Numbered from the stretch's first letter, positions 18,069-23,869 are shown. The stretch is DNA of 64,000 bases from an uncultured Verrucomicrobiae bacterium (GCA_963820205.1 CAWFZJ010000016.1:4493-68492); one strand, 5' to 3'. Numbers and translations are program-made. Notes: generated from the letters alone by a model not told the origin.

Positions 18069-18243
18069 CTTACCTCAGCAAATCCATCCGCCGAACTCGA
18101 CCCCTTTGTTCTCACGCAGTTCCGGTCGGAAGCTTAAAGACACTGCCGAAACGCTGGAAAATCACAAGCCATTTTTGGAGAATTTCCACACGAATTTTGC
18201 CCGGCAAATCCCGGCGAACGAATTTTTAAGGGGACGGCGGATG

Positions 18244-18284
18244 ATTCACCCTCTCCTTGGAGGAGAAGGCCGGGGTGAGGACGG
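18244..18284. repeat. third copy of the GC-rich hairpin repeat
   Basis: The sequence attcaccctctccttggaggagaaggccggggtgaggacgg belongs to the same family as 369-402. Confidence 0.7.
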
Positions 18285-18327
18285 TCGTTCAAAATATGTT
18301 GAAGTTTCGCCCAGCTTGGAAACACTG

Positions 18328-19842
18328 ATGCCAACGCAGCCAATGAATTCATCACGCCAGCAATACATTTCCAAATCCACCTATCTGATGGGGCTGCAAT
18401 GTCAGAAGCTGATTTGGTTCCGCTACAATGCCAAAGACCAAATCCCCGCTCCCGATCGAAGCGACACAGGCCGTTTTCGATCAAGGCACGGAAGTCGGCG
18501 AACTGGCGAGACAACTTTTTCCCGGTGGCATCGTGGTTGCGCCCGGCATCATCGCTCCCGACGAAGTCATCGCCGAAACCCAAAAGGCGATTCAAGCCCG
18601 CCGCCCTTTGTATGAAGCCGCGTTCGTTTTTCATGGCGGCTATGCCCGCACGGACATCCTCGTGCCGGTGGCCGGTGATGCGTGGGATTTGATTGAGGTC
18701 AAATCCACCACCAAGCTGAAGGAAGAAGTCCATCTGCCCGACATCGCGTTTCAAGCCTTTGTGCTCGCCGGGGCGGGAATCAAAATCCGCAAATGCTTTC
18801 TCGCCCACATCAACAACGAATTTGTCCGGCACGGCGCGATTGACCCGCAGAAGTTTTTCACGCTTGAAGACGTCACCAGGCAAGTCTCCGGCTTGAGCCG
18901 CGAGGTCGGGGAACAATTGGATGCGCTGCAACGCATCATCGGCGCGAAGGCGCATCCTGAAATCCAAATCGGCCCGCATTGCGACGATCCCTACACCTGC
19001 CCGTTGCACGAACGCTGCTGGTCGTTCCTGCCCGAAGCCAGCGTCTTCACGCTTTATCGCGGCGGCAAGAGAAGTTTCACGCTGCTCAAGCAGGGCATCC
19101 AGCATCTGGAAAAAATTCCCGCCGACTTCGCGCTCACCGACAATCAATCCATCCAGCGCGCCGCCCTGCTCGCGGGCAAACCGCACCTTGACCGCCCCGC
19201 ACTCGCGGCTTTTCTCGGCCAGCTTGAATATCCCGTCAGCTTTCTGGACTTTGAAACCATCGCCACGGCCATCCCGCTGTTTGAGACTCGCGCCCGTTCC
19301 AGCAGATTCCGTTTCAATACTCCCTGCACATTCTCCGCCGGTCGATTGCCACGTCGAGGCTCGACCCGGAACACCACTCGTTTTTGGCGGACGGCACGGC
19401 TGACCCGCGCCCGGAATTCATGCGCCAACTGTGCGCCGCCCTGCCGGAAACCGGCTCGGTGGTGACTTACAACGCCAGCTTTGAAACCGGACGATTGAAG
19501 GAAAATTGCGAACTGCTGCCGGAATTCAAACCGTGGTTCAGGAAAGTGACGCCGCGCATCGTTGACCTGCTGCTGCCGTTCCGTGGCTTCCGCTACTACC
19601 ACCCGCAGCAGCACGGCAGCGCGTCAATGAAAGCCGTGCTGCCCGCCCTGACCGGCAAGGGCTACGAAAATCTGGCGATTCAAGAAGGCGGCGCGGCCAG
19701 CCGCGAATTCCTGCGCGTGACCCACGGCCAAGTGACCGCCGCCGAACGCCGCCGCGTGCGCCAGCATCTGGAAGAATACTGCGGGCTGGATACGTTGGGG
19801 ATGGTTCAAATTGCTGGTGCCTTAACACAATTAACTGCCTAA
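18328..19842 (+). CDS. DUF2779-type PD-(D/E)XK nuclease with C-terminal DEDD-like exonuclease region, two frame interruptions
   Basis: The N-terminus ISKSTYLMGLQCQKLIWFRYNAKDQIPAPD is in the frame of ORF 17803..18615. The next segment, EATQAVFDQGTEVGELAR..DLIEVKSTTK..CDDPYTCPLHERCW..FLDFET, is in ORF 18428..19465. The last segment, RPFQQIPFQYSLHIL...to the end, is in the frame of ORF 19384..19842. The switches lie near 18457 and 19286-19295. Confidence 0.8.
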
Positions 19843-21116
19843 CCCGCGAGTTGATCCTGTTTCCGATTGTCTTTTGGTGGATTCAAATAACAGTCAGGCC
19901 AGCCTTTGCCGCTGGCCGCGCTTGGCCTTTTGAAAAGACAATCACAATCGTTGGTCTTTATTCCTAGATCGTTTGTCGGCTTCTCTCTTAAGATCCAAAT
20001 CATAGCGGCAGAAGCAGCTGTAACAAAAAGTATTGCTTGTTGCAAATATGCAAAACCCGGCTTTTGGTCTGCCCCCGCTGAACCATTTGTTAAATTGCAG
20101 ACTTCATTCCAAAACGAGATGAGCAGGGCTTCTGTCGCGCCAAGAGCATCCAAAGTAAACGTCTTATCACTCTCTTCGGGAGAAAGAAACAACCACCATT
20201 GGGTGTCAGGATTCTCGCGATTTAAATGTCCGCCCAAGCGAACATTGAACTCATCGGATTTTCCAATGTAAAACTTATTGGGCAAACGCAAAAAATAAAC
20301 TCCCCGGCGCTCACCAAACACATCCCCCTTTGGCTTCTCCATTCCAATGAACATCTTTAACCGTGGCATGGCGGGATCGCGCAAGGCTATGGTGTATTCA
20401 ATATGCCCACTATTCTCTTGTTTCATTTCCACGATAATCGGCCTGTTCGATAAACGACGAACAAAAGAATGCGAAGGTAAATTTAACAACCGCCAAGCTT
20501 TCTCCCATTCTTTTTGTGTTGGTTGGAGATACGGAACATCTTTAATCAAAGGTTCCGGTTTTATTCTCATTACTTTATTGTAAAAATCACTAGAAGGTCC
20601 GCGTGAGACAGGGCTGAAACCAAGTTCATTCCGCGCGTCTGTGATCAACTCTCCCGTCACATCTTTGACTTTTAATTGAATCTTTAATTGCTTGACCGGC
20701 CTTGCAACGAATGCTTCCCACGCTAACCGGCGTAGTAAAACAGCTTTGAGAGGGTCGTCATAGGAGAGAGGAATTTTTCGCTTTAGAATTTTCGGCGCGG
20801 ATTTTGGATCGTTTGCCGGAACGCCAACATCATTAGGTTGCTGCACATCGTCGGCAGTATTACTCGGTTGTTTGAACCTAAATACATTGGGAGATATTTG
20901 AACAAATGGGGAACATTCACCGTCCTTTTTGATGGAGGAGTAGATTTGAGAGCCGACTGTTGCCTCTGGCGTATTGCCAGTCACATTCCGCAATCCACGC
21001 TCTTTGATGGCGGCAACAATGTCGGGGGAAGACATGGGTTTGTCGGATGCTTTAAGAACTTCAATAATAGCCCCGCGCCATGAGAGGTTCTTTTTGTTAT
21101 CTTGATTTTGATCCAT
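19839..21116 (-). CDS. HARE-HTH domain / GIY-YIG nuclease domain protein
   Basis: This 425-aa ORF is AT-rich. The N-terminus LSWRGAIIEVLKASDKPMSSPDIVAAIKERGL..TPEATVGSQIYSSIKKDG..F.QISPNVFRF fits HARE-HTH. The later segment RGVYFLRLPNKFYIGKSDEFNVRLGGHL...TEALLISFWNEVCNLTN fits GIY-YIG. Its 3' end overlaps the 3' end of the DUF2779 gene by 4 nt. Confidence 0.8.
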   Translation of the reverse strand: MDQNQDNKKNLSWRGAIIEVLKASDKPMSSPDIVAAIKERGLRNVTGNTPEATVGSQIYSSIKKDGECSPFVQISPNVFRFKQPSNTADDVQQPNDVGVPANDPKSAPKILKRKIPLSYDDPLKAVLLRRLAWEAFVARPVKQLKIQLKVKDVTGELITDARNELGFSPVSRGPSSDFYNKVMRIKPEPLIKDVPYLQPTQKEWEKAWRLLNLPSHSFVRRLSNRPIIVEMKQENSGHIEYTIALRDPAMPRLKMFIGMEKPKGDVFGERRGVYFLRLPNKFYIGKSDEFNVRLGGHLNRENPDTQWWLFLSPEESDKTFTLDALGATEALLISFWNEVCNLTNGSAGADQKPGFAYLQQAILFVTAASAAMIWILREKPTNDLGIKTNDCDCLFKRPSAASGKGWPDCYLNPPKDNRKQDQLAG

Positions 21117-21158
21117 AGTTGTGTGATTGGGATTGTTTTCTCCGGTAAAAAAACAGAC

Positions 21159-21533
21159 TTATGGTTTTGGAACCTGGGTAGAGGCGATTGGATGGATAAA
21201 AATGTTTGTCCTGACGGCCGGCAAAATCTTTATCAAATCTTCAGCACTATAGTTTTGCTCTTTAAACGTTCCATTCGGCGTAACGATTTCAATTTGACAC
21301 TTGTGCGCCTCTTGAAATTTCGCAATCGCTTGTGCGGTTATAGCCACGCTGCCAGCCAGTGCGACAGCGTATGCAAGTCCGCTCTTTTTGCTATTGAGAA
21401 GCAGTTCGGAAAAACGTGCATCCAACCCGTTTTCTTTGGCAAATTCTGTTAGTGCCACGAGCAATTCCTTGTCCCCCCTTAAATCAACTTTAACATTCAT
21501 ATGTGTTCGGCTGTGTGGTTTTAATTTATTCAA
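21159..21533 (-). CDS. hypothetical protein (start possibly MNVKVDL at 21500)
   Basis: This is a 124-aa ORF and the last gene of a four-gene co-oriented string. It has a beta-strand start, a central Gly/Ala-rich hydrophobic helix (GLAYAVALAGSVAITAQAIAKF), then QIEIVTPNGT. Confidence 0.6.
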   Translation of the reverse strand: MNKLKPHSRTHMNVKVDLRGDKELLVALTEFAKENGLDARFSELLLNSKKSGLAYAVALAGSVAITAQAIAKFQEAHKCQIEIVTPNGTFKEQNYSAEDLIKILPAVRTNIFIHPIASTQVPKP

Positions 21534-21535
21534 GC

Positions 21536-21886
21536 TTATTTCCGAGGAGGCTGTCCGAAACCGCCGAGCGCGTCAATCATCGTGTGCCAGACCGAGGCGT
21601 AAGCGTCATGTTTGGCTTGCTGGTCGGGCGTGCGCACGACGGTGTCCTTGAAGTTGGAATAGTCCAGCGAGTCGCCCAGAAACTGCATCACCTTCCACAC
21701 CTCGCCCTTGCCGGTGACGATGCGAAACGCATAGTCCGCCGCCTTGGTGGCGTGGATTTCCGCGCCGGGCAGCGGCACGCGCGCGACGAGGTTTTCCAAA
21801 TCCTGACGCACGCGGGCGCGGACATGAAACTCGCCCGGCAACTTTTGCACGATGGAATAAAATCCGTGTTTGGTCATCAGCCACAT
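21536..21886 (-). CDS. conserved hypothetical protein
   Basis: This is a 116-aa ORF lying 2 nt upstream of the next gene. The motif block is MTKHGFYSIVQK..HVRARVRQDLENL...LDYSNFKD. I have seen this block in unnamed hypothetical proteins of other bacteria. Confidence 0.65.
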   Translation of the reverse strand: MWLMTKHGFYSIVQKLPGEFHVRARVRQDLENLVARVPLPGAEIHATKAADYAFRIVTGKGEVWKVMQFLGDSLDYSNFKDTVVRTPDQQAKHDAYASVWHTMIDALGGFGQPPRK

Positions 21887-21892
21887 AAAATT

Positions 21893-22327
21893 TCAGTTTT
21901 TAGCCGCCACTTCGCGGTCAACTGATTCGCTGCCTGCCGCTTGAATTGTCGGCGACCCGCTTACTTTAATGAAAAATTCCCGGTAAATAAATCCCCAATC
22001 CAAATCCACCGTGACCCAATAGCAGTTTTCCGAAAGGAAATGAATGTGCCAGAGCGGCTGGTCATTGAGCCACGTCGTTTCGACTTCCGAGACCAGCGAA
22101 AATTCATCACAAGCCAGAATCCGAAAGCGGGCGCGCACCTGTTCGCCCCGGTAGGTGTAAAGCACCGAGTCCGGCGTGTAGGAGACAGTCAGGGGAATGA
22201 GCCGTTCCGGCAATGTGAACTCATGGAGTTTCGGATGATCGGGGCGCAAATGCCGCTTGATTTCGACCAGCGTTCTTTCGAGATCGCTTTGCCAGGTTCC
22301 AAGAATGGTTTCAGGTGTAACTTTCAT
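21893..22327 (-). CDS. hypothetical protein
   Basis: The 144-aa ORF overlaps the upstream gene by 4 nt (ATGA-type coupling). I recognise no domain. Confidence 0.65.
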   Translation of the reverse strand: MKVTPETILGTWQSDLERTLVEIKRHLRPDHPKLHEFTLPERLIPLTVSYTPDSVLYTYRGEQVRARFRILACDEFSLVSEVETTWLNDQPLWHIHFLSENCYWVTVDLDWGFIYREFFIKVSGSPTIQAAGSESVDREVAAKN

Positions 22328-22905
22328 GGAAGCTCCATTTCGTCATCGTCATCCGGTTCCGGCTTGTCATCGTCGGGTTCCTGCTCCTTCTCCTTGTAGG
22401 GAATGCCCAAAAGCAAATGCGTGTAGCGGGCGTTGATTTTCTCCATTTCAGCATTTGTCCAATCGTCGGAATGGGGATTTTGCACCAGGGATTTTGCGAG
22501 GTCAAAATTATCATTGATGTAGCAGAGCATCGCGTTGGCGATGGTTTGTTCCGGTGTTTGGCCCTCGAATCCCGGACGATGGAGTTCGCTGGCAATCCAC
22601 CGGTCAATCTGGCCGGGCGAATTCCATGGAATGATCGGCGTAAAGGACGGCGTCTTGCCGAGAAAAATATCCGCCATTCCCAGCGCGTAGCCATGATCGC
22701 AAGCCATTCGTTCTTCCGGGTCCATCTTCGACTTGTAGCTTTCCACGACCATATCGCGGTATTTTCGCAGGAGGTTGCCAACGACATCAGGATCGCCGAG
22801 ATAATTCGGCTTGGATGCCTGATCCAGCGCGGCAATGAAACCCGCTGCCGAAGGAGCTTTTTTCTTTTTCATGCCGGGTTTGGCAGCAGCAGCCTTTTTC
22901 GCCAT
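22324..22905 (-). CDS. hypothetical protein with Lys-rich N-terminus and acidic tail
   Basis: This 193-aa ORF is first in the string. It starts MAKKAAAAKPGMKKKKAP and ends KEQEPDDDKPEPDDDDEMELP. Confidence 0.65.
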   Translation of the reverse strand: MAKKAAAAKPGMKKKKAPSAAGFIAALDQASKPNYLGDPDVVGNLLRKYRDMVVESYKSKMDPEERMACDHGYALGMADIFLGKTPSFTPIIPWNSPGQIDRWIASELHRPGFEGQTPEQTIANAMLCYINDNFDLAKSLVQNPHSDDWTNAEMEKINARYTHLLLGIPYKEKEQEPDDDKPEPDDDDEMELP

Positions 22906-23020
22906 GCATGCAGTTTGCGCGGGAAATTTGGCAGCGTCAATTTCCGTCTATGCTCCCGTCGTCGTTTCACTTTGACGAGGCAAGTCGCTTCGACGCGACA
23001 GGCAGCGATCCCAAGCCACA

Positions 23021-23869
23021 TCAAAACCGGCGCAGTTCTTCCGGTTTTTTTCCCTGCTCACGGAGCGCCCGCAGGCTCAGCGCGTCGTGGCGCTTGGCCA
23101 GCCGCTTCCCTTTTTCGTCCAGCATTAGCGCGCAGTGATAAAACGCCGGCGTCGTCAAACCCAGCGCCCGGTAAAGCAGAATCTGCCGCGCCGTGCTCAA
23201 CAGCAAATCCGCCCCGCGCACGACTTCGGTGATGCCCATCGCCGCGTCGTCCACCACACAGGCAAGTTGATACGCCGGCACGTCGTCATGCCGCCACACG
23301 ACGAAGTCGCCAAAATCTTTTCCGGCCACGAACTTTTGTTCGCCAAAATTTCCATCGGTAAAGGAAATGGTTTCGCCGTCAGGAACACGGAAACGCCACG
23401 CAAATTTTGAGTTTTGAATTTTTAATTTTGAGTTACCCCGGCAAGTGCCGGGATAAATGGGCCCTTCATCGTCGCCGGCGTTGGGCGCGCTGGCGGCATC
23501 GCGGATGTCCTTGCGCGAACAAGTGCAGGGATAAACGAAGCCGCCGGCCCGGAGTTTTTCCAGCGCGGCAGAGTAGAACGTCCGCCGTTCACTTTGCGAA
23601 TACGGTCCAAAAGCCCCGCCGCAATCCGGCCCCTCCTGCCATTCAAAACCGAACCAGCGCAGGTCTTCGATCATTTGCGGGACGAACTCCAGTCTGAAGC
23701 GCGTGGAGTCAATGTCTTCGTTGCGCAAAACCAGCGTGCCGCCGTTCGCCCGCGCCCGTTCTTGCGCCACCCAAAACGTCCGCGCATGACCGAGATGCAG
23801 AAGTCCCGTCGGCGAGGGCGCCAGCCGGCCGCGATATTGCGGATTACAGATTGCAGATTGCGGATTCAC
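23021..23869 (-). CDS. gluQ: glutamyl-Q tRNA(Asp) synthetase
   Basis: It reads RGRLAPSPTGLLHLGHARTFW..LVLRNEDID..YPCTCSR..YQLACVVDDAAMGITEVVRGADL and is colinear with E. coli GluQRS/YadB. It starts at a GTG inside a heptamer repeat. Confidence 0.9.
   Translation of the reverse strand: MNPQSAICNPQYRGRLAPSPTGLLHLGHARTFWVAQERARANGGTLVLRNEDIDSTRFRLEFVPQMIEDLRWFGFEWQEGPDCGGAFGPYSQSERRTFYSAALEKLRAGGFVYPCTCSRKDIRDAASAPNAGDDEGPIYPGTCRGNSKLKIQNSKFAWRFRVPDGETISFTDGNFGEQKFVAGKDFGDFVVWRHDDVPAYQLACVVDDAAMGITEVVRGADLLLSTARQILLYRALGLTTPAFYHCALMLDEKGKRLAKRHDALSLRALREQGKKPEELRRF
23403..23434. repeat. AT-rich tandem heptamers (ARTTTTG x4.5) inside gluQ
   Basis: The repeat reads AATTTTG AGTTTTG AATTTTT AATTTTG AGTT. 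It is read in frame on the minus strand as NSKLKIQNSKF. Confidence 0.8.
23836..23869. repeat. tandem heptamers (ATTGCRG x4.9) forming the 5' end of gluQ
   Basis: The repeat reads ATTGCGG ATTACAG ATTGCAG ATTGCGG ATTCAC. It is read on the minus strand as M-NPQSAICNPQ. Confidence 0.8.

Follow-up and report, generated by a model that had tools for sequence, protein, structure and literature searches.

A small island with an exchangeable nuclease slot between gluQ and the atp operon of an uncultured Verrucomicrobiae bacterium, a candidate phage-defence module

Defence islets with variable nucleases, fusions of DNA-modification readers to nucleases, and conflict systems centred on ADP-ribose are all kinds of system that are already known or predicted. 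Iyer, Burroughs, Anantharaman and Aravind (2022) set out systems centred on an ADP-ribosylglycohydrolase (ARG) that are predicted to counter viral ADP-ribosylation; in these, small chaperone-like proteins and varying nuclease effectors of restriction type accompany a conserved core (PMC9503650). HARE-HTH and RAMA domains are proposed readers of DNA modification (PMC11037411), and the effector-associated constant component EACC1 is defined by its pairing with a 3' caspase- or peptidase-fused gene with variable effectors (PMC7159879). Here we describe a 4,817-nt island inserted between gluQ and the atp operon in a 64,000-nt stretch of DNA from an uncultured Verrucomicrobiae bacterium (GCA_963820205.1, CAWFZJ010000016.1:4493-68492; hereafter the window, with positions counted from its first letter). 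The island carries four small genes for proteins P1 to P4, a gene for a putative nuclease, P5, and a convergent gene of the DUF2779 family; other loci used in the comparison are cited by L numbers. Its principal features are listed below.

22324-22905, minus strand: P1, 193 aa
21893-22327, minus strand: P2, 144 aa
21536-21886, minus strand: P3, 116 aa
21159-21500, minus strand: P4, 113 aa, with an open reading frame (ORF) extendable to a TTG at 21533 (124 aa, 21159-21533)
19839-21116, minus strand: P5, 425 aa, a HARE-HTH domain with a C-terminal module of ~300 aa; candidate modification-dependent endonuclease
18329-19842, plus strand: DUF2779 gene, solo-Cas4-like PD-(D/E)xK nuclease with a predicted RNase-H-like exonuclease; convergent with P5 and disrupted
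19813-21554, no strand assigned: variable cassette slot holding P5, P4 and the last ~6 codons of P3; ~1.7 kb, replaced in other loci
18204-23020, no strand assigned: the whole inserted island, 4,817 nt, delimited by alignment to empty sites in relatives

We read this island as a mobile conflict islet, with a probability of roughly 0.55, in which an ADP-ribose-linked chassis is combined with an exchangeable type IV-like nuclease and with a DUF2779 nuclease that has decayed here; such an islet would probably be anti-phage. Its first layer would be a conserved chassis operon, P1-P2-P3, drawn from families that elsewhere appear to work with a NUDIX hydrolase and that lie beside genes for ADP-ribosyltransferases (ARTs), ARG, ARPP-1, WYL regulators and nucleases. 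In this clade P2 would replace the NUDIX component, and the chassis would bind or sense an ADP-ribose-type ligand or an ADP-ribosylated target. The second layer would be the exchangeable effector, here P4 and P5, of which P5 is most likely a type IV-like enzyme that cleaves modified or foreign DNA, and chassis and nuclease would be functionally coupled. The third, the convergent DUF2779 Cas4-like nuclease/exonuclease, would close the frame and is probably inactivated here by two frameshifts.

We regard the island as a good candidate for an undescribed phage-defence system. Three things appear to be new: the P1-(NUDIX/P2)-P3 triad, the combination of this triad with DUF2779 on either side of a nuclease slot, and the occurrence of the triad in phage ART modules as well as in bacterial islands; no description of the combination of triad, DUF2779 gene and slot was found in the literature searched, and neither section 3.8 of PMC9503650 nor a term search of that paper yielded P1-P2-P3 together with DUF2779. 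If the proposed reading is true, the island is a small, portable defence module into which nucleases can be plugged, and it gives a first functional context to two unannotated families, one of them very large, with confident predicted folds that have no solved-structure match. It would also link bacterial islands, plasmids and phage-injected ART modules through a common P1-NUDIX-P3 core, and make it possible to address by experiment the ways in which bacteria detect or counter phage ADP-ribosylation, a subject that PMC9503650 calls almost unexplored.

The architecture of the locus is modular and its cassette turns over. The frame consists of the co-oriented, tightly spaced P1-P2-P3 genes and the convergent DUF2779 gene. 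Window DNA is 91-95% identical to that of other loci over 18292-19812 (DUF2779) and 21555-22892 (P3-P2-P1), and this identity stops sharply at 19812 and 21555. Between the two breakpoints the non-redundant frame loci hold about ten different fillings as well as an empty state, as follows (a double colon marks a fusion).

Window: P4 and HARE-HTH::GIY-YIG (putative)
L014: HARE-HTH::GIY-YIG (putative) at 47% identity, without P4
L088/L089: the C-terminal 300-aa module of P5 alone
L013, L001: P4 and HARE-HTH fused to a different short nuclease
L015: RE_Bsp6I-like gene and HARE-HTH::short nuclease
L003/L004: RE_Bsp6I-like gene and GIY-YIG
L009: RE_Bsp6I-like gene and PDDEXK_4::RAMA
L090-L092: PDDEXK_4::RAMA
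L011: PD-(D/E)xK-like gene and GIY-YIG::DUF4357
L093-L095: HARE-HTH gene on the opposite strand
L012, L027: empty

Several cassettes retain relics of the genes that flank them: that of L009 contains a second copy of 96 nt of the P3 3' end, that of L015 an 87-nt copy of the P3 3' end, and that of L093 a relic of a window-type DUF2779 3' end. Because of these relics, cassette exchange appears to proceed by recombination within the 3' ends of P3 and DUF2779. In L015 (3859-4489) the RE_Bsp6I-like gene appears to interrupt P3, the 3' end of which resumes after it; the junction contains an 'NN' scaffold gap, and the interruption may be a scaffolding or assembly artefact. The natural cassette variants between near-identical flanks constitute a ready series for effector-exchange tests.

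The frame itself is conserved unevenly. P1 identity falls to 44% and DUF2779 identity to ~32-39% in frame loci in which P2 and P3 are still highly conserved, which makes the locus a mosaic built around the P2-P3 pair; the order P1-P2-P3 is nonetheless retained down to 44% P1 identity. In 8 loci P2 always lies 7-8 nt upstream of P3. Its identity is 94-98% across most frame loci (72% in L014), including those with P1 at 44%, and that of P3 is 84-91% (71% in L015). The copies of P2-P3 in L008, L009 and L013, which are ~86-98% identical to those of the window, lie on contigs of metagenome-assembled genomes (MAGs) labelled Acidobacteriaceae, Bifidobacteriaceae and Baltobacteraceae; these represent either very recent cross-phylum transfer or, more likely, mis-binned Verrucomicrobial contigs.

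The frame occurs in unrelated surroundings. It sits among fucosidase genes in L003 and adjoins BrxL and PglZ of a BREX system in L090, and in L088 (8001-13020) the P1-P3-nuclease-DUF2779 frame and an accompanying Y-family DNA polymerase gene (IMS) separate rplW (L23) from rplB (L2) in the S10 ribosomal-protein operon, which is universal apart from this. In L012 (6875-7926) a zeta-toxin-like kinase of 203 aa and a 147-aa gene, a probable toxin-antitoxin pair, replace P1-P2 upstream of P3, and the upstream side of P3 is thus exchangeable as well. The locus resembles defence-island hotspots in its near-identical flanks, sharp breakpoints, many nuclease cargos, empty state, and BREX or toxin-antitoxin neighbours. 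It differs from them in that its flanks are not core housekeeping genes and travel together as a 4-5-kb unit between unrelated sites.

In the window the island is an insertion. A metagenome scan with the flanking gluQ protein retrieved 80 loci of relatives at 75-92% identity, 65 of which had enough downstream sequence to be informative; gluQ stands directly before atpB in 61 of these 65, usually at a distance of 155-450 nt, and none of the 61 has the island. Alignment to the closest empty sites places one boundary at 23020/23021, where the island directly adjoins the gluQ stop codon, and the atp-side boundary at 18203-18205, the 4,817 nt replacing a spacer of ~17 nt. G+C falls from ~0.58 to 0.44-0.49 across 20000-22000. 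The only repeat-like feature at the junctions is a 9-nt microhomology: the island ends have no terminal inverted repeats or target duplication, Pfam and NCBIfam scans found no integrase or transposase gene in the island, no tRNA gene was found in 8000-34000 of the window, and an Rfam scan found no feature. Other small inserts are present at the gluQ-atp junction of relatives (L124-L126, L121, L146, L123, L133 and L177), among them an MmeI_N fragment, a PIN-domain toxin preceded by a 96-aa gene, and genes that lack annotation, and in L124-L126 the gluQ-atpB distance is ~2.66 kb. Accessory genes seem to have settled at this junction repeatedly in the lineage.

The window's effector gene, P5, begins with a HARE-HTH match at residues 12-80 (E=3.7e-14). 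Its C-terminal module contains a GIY-YIG-type core (residues ~272-344), in which Y274, Y283, G285, R293, E329 and N344 are invariant in three homologues of 46-48% identity; the spacing of the catalytic residues is canonical for the superfamily, at 0/9/19/55/70, as compared with 0/10/20/57/69 for the GIY-YIG residues of UvrC. Going by this residue pattern, P5 is a predicted fusion of a reader domain to a GIY-YIG-type nuclease. L088 has the C-terminal module by itself, at 46% identity; in L013, L015 and L001 it is the HARE-HTH head that recurs, joined there to another, short nuclease. No methyltransferase was found among the six island genes in Pfam and NCBIfam scans, nor in any cassette. Because it joins a HARE-HTH reader to a nuclease and has no partner methyltransferase, P5 most likely cuts modified or foreign DNA. 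This arrangement is like that of type IV restriction endonucleases with winged-helix, HARE-HTH or RAMA fusions (PMC11037411), and the sister cassettes PDDEXK_4::RAMA and GIY-YIG::DUF4357 share it. In contrast to such enzymes, P5 lies in a slot whose position between conserved non-restriction genes is fixed, and it is preceded by a rare small partner, P4; the specificity of HARE-HTH is only predicted.

The same breakpoints and cassettes could be explained differently. GIY-YIG is a classic family of free-standing homing endonucleases, and the nuclease genes of the slot (GIY-YIG and RE-like) could be selfish, cutting P3 or DUF2779 alleles that lack them and spreading by repair-mediated gene conversion, with any defence incidental. 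The family's homing members, the lack of a methyltransferase and the sharp breakpoints inside the 3' ends of two highly conserved genes all fit such a cycle, as do the 96-nt P3 3'-end duplicate in L009, the RE_Bsp6I-like gene interrupting P3 in L015 and the vacant slots of L012 and L027. Filled, differently filled and empty slots at a fixed P3-DUF2779 site amount to a presence/absence polymorphism beside a conserved gene. Nevertheless, the HARE-HTH, RAMA and DUF4357 reader domains are more in keeping with restriction-type enzymes than with homing ones (PMC11037411), two different nucleases share the slot in several cassettes, and the L015 interruption spans the 'NN' gap and so may be an assembly artefact. 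Homing also leaves the conserved P1-NUDIX/P2-P3 linkage outside the clade unexplained, and we consider it quite improbable as an account of the locus.

The convergent gene matches PF11074 (E=3.2e-19) and, weakly, Cas4 (E=3.5e-4 to 3.8e-3). DUF2779 proteins are uncharacterised solo-Cas4-like PD-(D/E)xK nucleases fused to a predicted RNase-H-like 3'-5' exonuclease (PMC13621843, PMC3985635). The gene is intact, at ~492-500 aa, in L003, L009, L012, L027, L088 and L090, with 84-95% identity (74-84% for L090). Comparison with four intact orthologues reveals two single-base frameshifts in the window copy, an additional C at 18457 and the loss of a base after 19284. As neither lies in a homopolymer, the window's DUF2779 gene is probably a genuine pseudogene, its five neighbouring genes P1 to P5 being intact.

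The three chassis proteins differ widely in their distribution. P3, the anchor of the module, has at least 315 close matches in a word-indexed search, and an exhaustive profile search returned 5,936 representative clusters at E<=1e-3 and 2,695 at E<=1e-10, with members in Verrucomicrobiota, Planctomycetota, Acidobacteriota, Bacteroidota, Proteobacteria, Cyanobacteria, Actinomycetes and Chloroflexi. Its 14 invariant columns are rich in His, Arg, Tyr, Asn and Gln and include H20, R22, R24, Y51, R54, Y75, N77 and Q88; these polar residues would suit a ligand-binding or catalytic site more than a peptide-binding chaperone. The AlphaFold2 model of P3 (predicted local distance difference test score, pLDDT, 87.6) is alpha/beta with the topology b-b-b-a-b-b-a-a-a. 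Foldseek found no match to it in the PDB (best E=0.13), including none to type III secretion chaperones or YbjN, and a profile search of solved structures gave noise only; in BFVD, two uncharacterised viral proteins are structurally homologous to P3. In the model the topology is compatible with a permuted TY fold, and P3 may be one of the small TY-Chap chaperone families that PMC9503650 names without giving sequences. P3 is found fused to NUDIX, to TPR+SseB and to DUF6508; the latter two fusions were considered as a clue to its role and are not decisive alone.

P1 homologues form 31 clusters at 44-93% identity and come in short and long forms. The window has the short form, with a disordered polybasic N-tail and a polyacidic C-tail, and its AlphaFold2 model (pLDDT 81.8) is an all-helical bundle of six helices with values >90 over most of residues 30-170 and <50 in the tails; Foldseek found no PDB match (best E=0.15). 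The long form has an additional conserved N-terminal domain of ~120 aa with the motifs KWFIFF...HRSWTGY...EANRN (alignment columns ~30-150), for which there is no Pfam match and a weak THAP match at E=0.03. P2 is a clade-restricted orphan, with only 2 clusters of homologues in an index of 5.8 billion proteins, and it occupies the position that NUDIX has in the phage and fusion versions of the module described below.

Outside this clade, the P1 and P3 families are linked through NUDIX. In 4 of 4 inspected phage records of ~90 kb (Mecenats66, Dolphis, Touem01 and ECML-606-1; L225-L227 and L098), with Pseudomonas, Escherichia and Morganella as hosts, and in 5 viral contigs, a P1 homologue (hhalign 96-97%) lies upstream of NUDIX, which is followed by a P3 homologue. 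In all four phage records the module stands directly downstream of a giant ART protein of 1,200-2,250 aa, which is annotated as an ADP-ribosyltransferase in Dolphis and has a C-terminal ADPrib_exo_Tox match in Touem01 (29 bits, above the cut-off). A Reyranella MAG encodes P3::NUDIX::long-form P1 as one 556-aa protein (NUDIX E=1e-14; P1 hhalign 99.8%, E=6e-30), in which the extra P1 domain occupies residues 269-380 (L071), where the window's P1 has its polybasic tail instead; the fusion gene is followed, with a 4-nt overlap, by a staphylococcal-nuclease (SNase) homologue. The cross-phylum P1-NUDIX-P3 linkage, which includes a fusion protein, is thus directly observed, and the phage gene order together with the Reyranella fusion indicates a functional link, across phyla, between P1, P3 and the component that lies between them. 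In Mecenats66 the module adjoins terminase and portal genes, and the next gene after it in Dolphis and Touem01 is annotated as a restriction endonuclease or methylase, that of Touem01 matching DUF4942. More generally, the phage module ends in a DUF4942 ('RE endonuclease') or DUF3268 gene, and all of its small genes are annotated as hypothetical. With respect to phage polyvalent head-packaged ART modules (PMC9503650), these records agree in that P1 and P3 homologues flank NUDIX directly downstream of a giant C-terminal-ART protein, whereas the window has no ART or NUDIX gene, has P2 in the middle, and is an island of a bacterial chromosome with restriction-type nucleases.

P3 homologues also lie among ADP-ribose-related genes in bacteria. 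An Aeromonas plasmid has the order WYL regulator, ARG, hypothetical gene, P3::NUDIX fusion, DUF262 and SNF2, and a Burkholderia plasmid the order NUDIX, YbjN, DraG ARG and P3::NUDIX; P3::NUDIX fusions occur in 3 replicons, and ARG adjoins P3 homologues on two plasmids and at one genome locus. Among 71 distant P3 loci the recurrent neighbours are WYL/WCX regulators (10 loci, within 4 kb), ARPP-1 (7) and a vWA-like family (6), together accounting for 19 loci, and other neighbours are PTP-SAK rhodanese-type phosphatases, ARG, Macro, NAD synthase, EEP nucleases and Endonuclease_NS. P1 or P3 repeatedly adjoins a nuclease, namely SNase in Reyranella, DUF262 with SNF2 on the Aeromonas plasmid, EEP in L017 and DUF4942 in phages. 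The P3-family loci thereby resemble the ARG-centred systems of PMC9503650 in having ARG, WYL/Nudix regulators, PTP-SAK, ARPP-1, Macro, vWA, SseB fusions, YbjN and restriction-type nuclease/helicase effectors, and the window island resembles them in its conserved core and in its variable nuclease effectors swapped between close relatives; unlike them, it has no ARG, phosphatase, Nudix or WYL gene.

These contexts admit a wider proposal, in which P1, NUDIX or P2, and P3 would be the sensor/adaptor core of an unnamed conflict system, widespread and linked to ADP-ribosylation, that phages and bacteria both employ against each other. It would come with an injected giant ART in phages and with interchangeable nucleases in bacteria, cleavage being licensed by phage ADP-ribosylation or by an ADP-ribose-derived signal; P3, whose family comprises ~5,900 clusters at 50% identity and has no Pfam model, would then be a new ADP-ribose- or nucleotide-binding fold. 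We put this forward tentatively, as a possibility to be taken seriously rather than one that we expect to hold.

A number of observations weigh against the islet as we read it. The GIY-YIG match of P5 is below the cut-off (PF01541 E=0.14, 12.9 bits vs 22.6; TIGR01453 E=0.041), and a profile search of solved structures with P5 gave no GIY-YIG match, just a weak ASXL1 HARE-HTH match. The disruption of DUF2779 may mean that the whole unit is in decay. A Pfam scan of the window island found no ARG, NUDIX, ART or WYL gene, and the link to ADP-ribose therefore rests on homologues elsewhere; two ways of relating P2 to NUDIX, as a diverged member of that family or as a counterpart of the N-terminal domain in phage NUDIX proteins, were considered and rejected (hhalign <1%). 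PADLOC models match none of P1-P4, and no mobility gene or terminal repeat accounts for the movement of the island. Moreover, ~70% of the distant P3 loci have no recognised conflict-type neighbour, and P3 may consequently have a general, nuclease-independent role. Finally, given the cassette on the opposite strand in L093-L095 and the empty slot in L012 and L027, chassis and nuclease may be no more than hotspot neighbours.

That last point can be developed into an explanation in which the site is a hotspot of unrelated passengers. Only P5 would then defend, as a stand-alone type IV-like nuclease, P1-P2-P3 being an unrelated module (a phage-derived ART accessory or counter-defence set), DUF2779 an unrelated repair nuclease, and the convergent gene ends tolerant sites of recombination. 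Reader-nuclease fusions of the P5 type do normally act alone (PMC11037411), the cassette can be absent or reversed in the loci just named, and P3 is mostly found without nucleases and usually occurs without P1, P2 or P4. The phage P1-NUDIX-P3 module, for its part, sits with ART and head genes and not in a defence locus, and the gluQ-atp junction has received unrelated inserts such as the PIN toxin pair and the MmeI_N fragment. However, it is the whole frame, and not the cassette alone, that moves between chromosomal sites, and nucleases of unrelated folds (SNase, DUF262+SNF2, EEP and DUF4942) lie directly beside P3 or P1 in independent lineages. We judge a mere assembly of passengers to be unlikely and retain the reading of a coupled islet.

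P4 is a rare protein linked to the cassette. It has 3 homologue clusters only and occurs in only 4 other loci (L001, L002, L013 and the 96%-identical P0121 cluster); in L001, L002 and L013 it is found only upstream of HARE-HTH nucleases. It is not present beside the closest full-length P5 homologue (L014) and is also absent from L088 and L090. Its mean column identity is 83%, and residues ~51-73 (SGLAYAVALAGSVAITAQAIAKF) form a conserved, Gly/Ala-rich central hydrophobic helix with a hand-computed mean Kyte-Doolittle hydropathy of ~1.6, which is borderline for a membrane helix. The original prediction had likened P4 to EACC proteins, in which case it would be the constant component of an NTPase- or protease-based conflict system and P5 its effector. 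EACC1 has one transmembrane helix, strongly conserved, in the middle of which small residues form a patch (PMC7159879). P4, with its short N-terminal alpha+beta part, Gly/Ala-rich hydrophobic helix and C-terminal extension, is superficially like it, and is likewise a small 5' protein upstream of a variable effector gene. In contrast, P4 has no match at E<=1 in Pfam, NCBIfam or PADLOC (the presence of an EACC1 model in the Pfam copy used being unconfirmed), there is no NTPase or peptidase gene in or near the island by Pfam scan, the N-terminus of P5 is HARE-HTH and not a caspase, and the phylum is different. Nor is P4 constant, as it is the rarest and most dispensable part of the locus. The proposed likeness is contradicted on these grounds, and we regard an EACC-based system here as very improbable indeed.

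At the level of genes, the original prediction had described four minus-strand ORFs of unknown function leading into the GIY-YIG gene, and all four are present. The spacings that it gave as -4, 6 and 42 nt are correct, but its 2-nt gap between P3 and P4 is not: because all four P4 homologues start at an internal ATG at 21500, P4 is 113 aa long and the gap is 35 nt. No annotated domain had been recognised in P1-P4, and scans of Pfam, NCBIfam, PADLOC and PHROGs at E<=1 gave nothing significant for any of them. The polybasic head and polyacidic tail attributed to P1 likewise exist, as disordered tails in the AlphaFold2 model. The ratio of nonsynonymous to synonymous substitution (dN/dS) of P1-P4 against diverged homologues is 0.12-0.33 (P1 0.33, P2 0.12-0.16, P4 0.16-0.22), consistent with purifying selection, and since these values are well below 1 the four are real genes, P3 having thousands of relatives in addition.

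As for the proposal that the five genes form one unit, they do not obligately co-occur: P4 and the GIY-YIG gene are an exchangeable cassette, and P1-P2-P3 occur with other nucleases or with none. The conserved partner of the frame, the convergent DUF2779 gene at 18329-19842, had been overlooked. P1-P3 recur together in other genomes, and no clear metabolic homologues were found for them. A reading as a conflict module is favoured by the accessory insertion, the swapped nucleases, the BREX neighbour and the ADP-ribose contexts of the core families, but not in the form of a single five-gene unit or of an EACC analogue. A promoter and terminator scan, which was not above shuffled expectation, found no terminator-like site between the genes on the coding strand, and co-transcription is therefore possible.

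Long ORFs that overlap the four genes, at 21503-21925 (plus strand), 21102-21452 (plus), 22311-22835 (minus) and 22417-23232 (plus), are by-products of composition; they were dismissed because the conserved frames with low dN/dS are those of P1-P4. A further stretch lies at the atp-side edge of the island.

18204-18291, no strand assigned: island-terminal stretch, 88 nt, inside the insertion and outside the block common to most frame loci

Within it, at 18247-18280, is a 34-nt imperfect palindrome, CACCCTCTCCTTGGAGGAGAAGG (also written CACCCTCTCCTTGGAGGAGAAGGCCGGGGTGAGG). It was considered as a dispersed repeat and rejected as such, being present in a single copy in the window. The ~88-92 nt around it are 80% identical to L011 2331-2421, where they stand in the opposite relative orientation and far from the L011 DUF2779 end.

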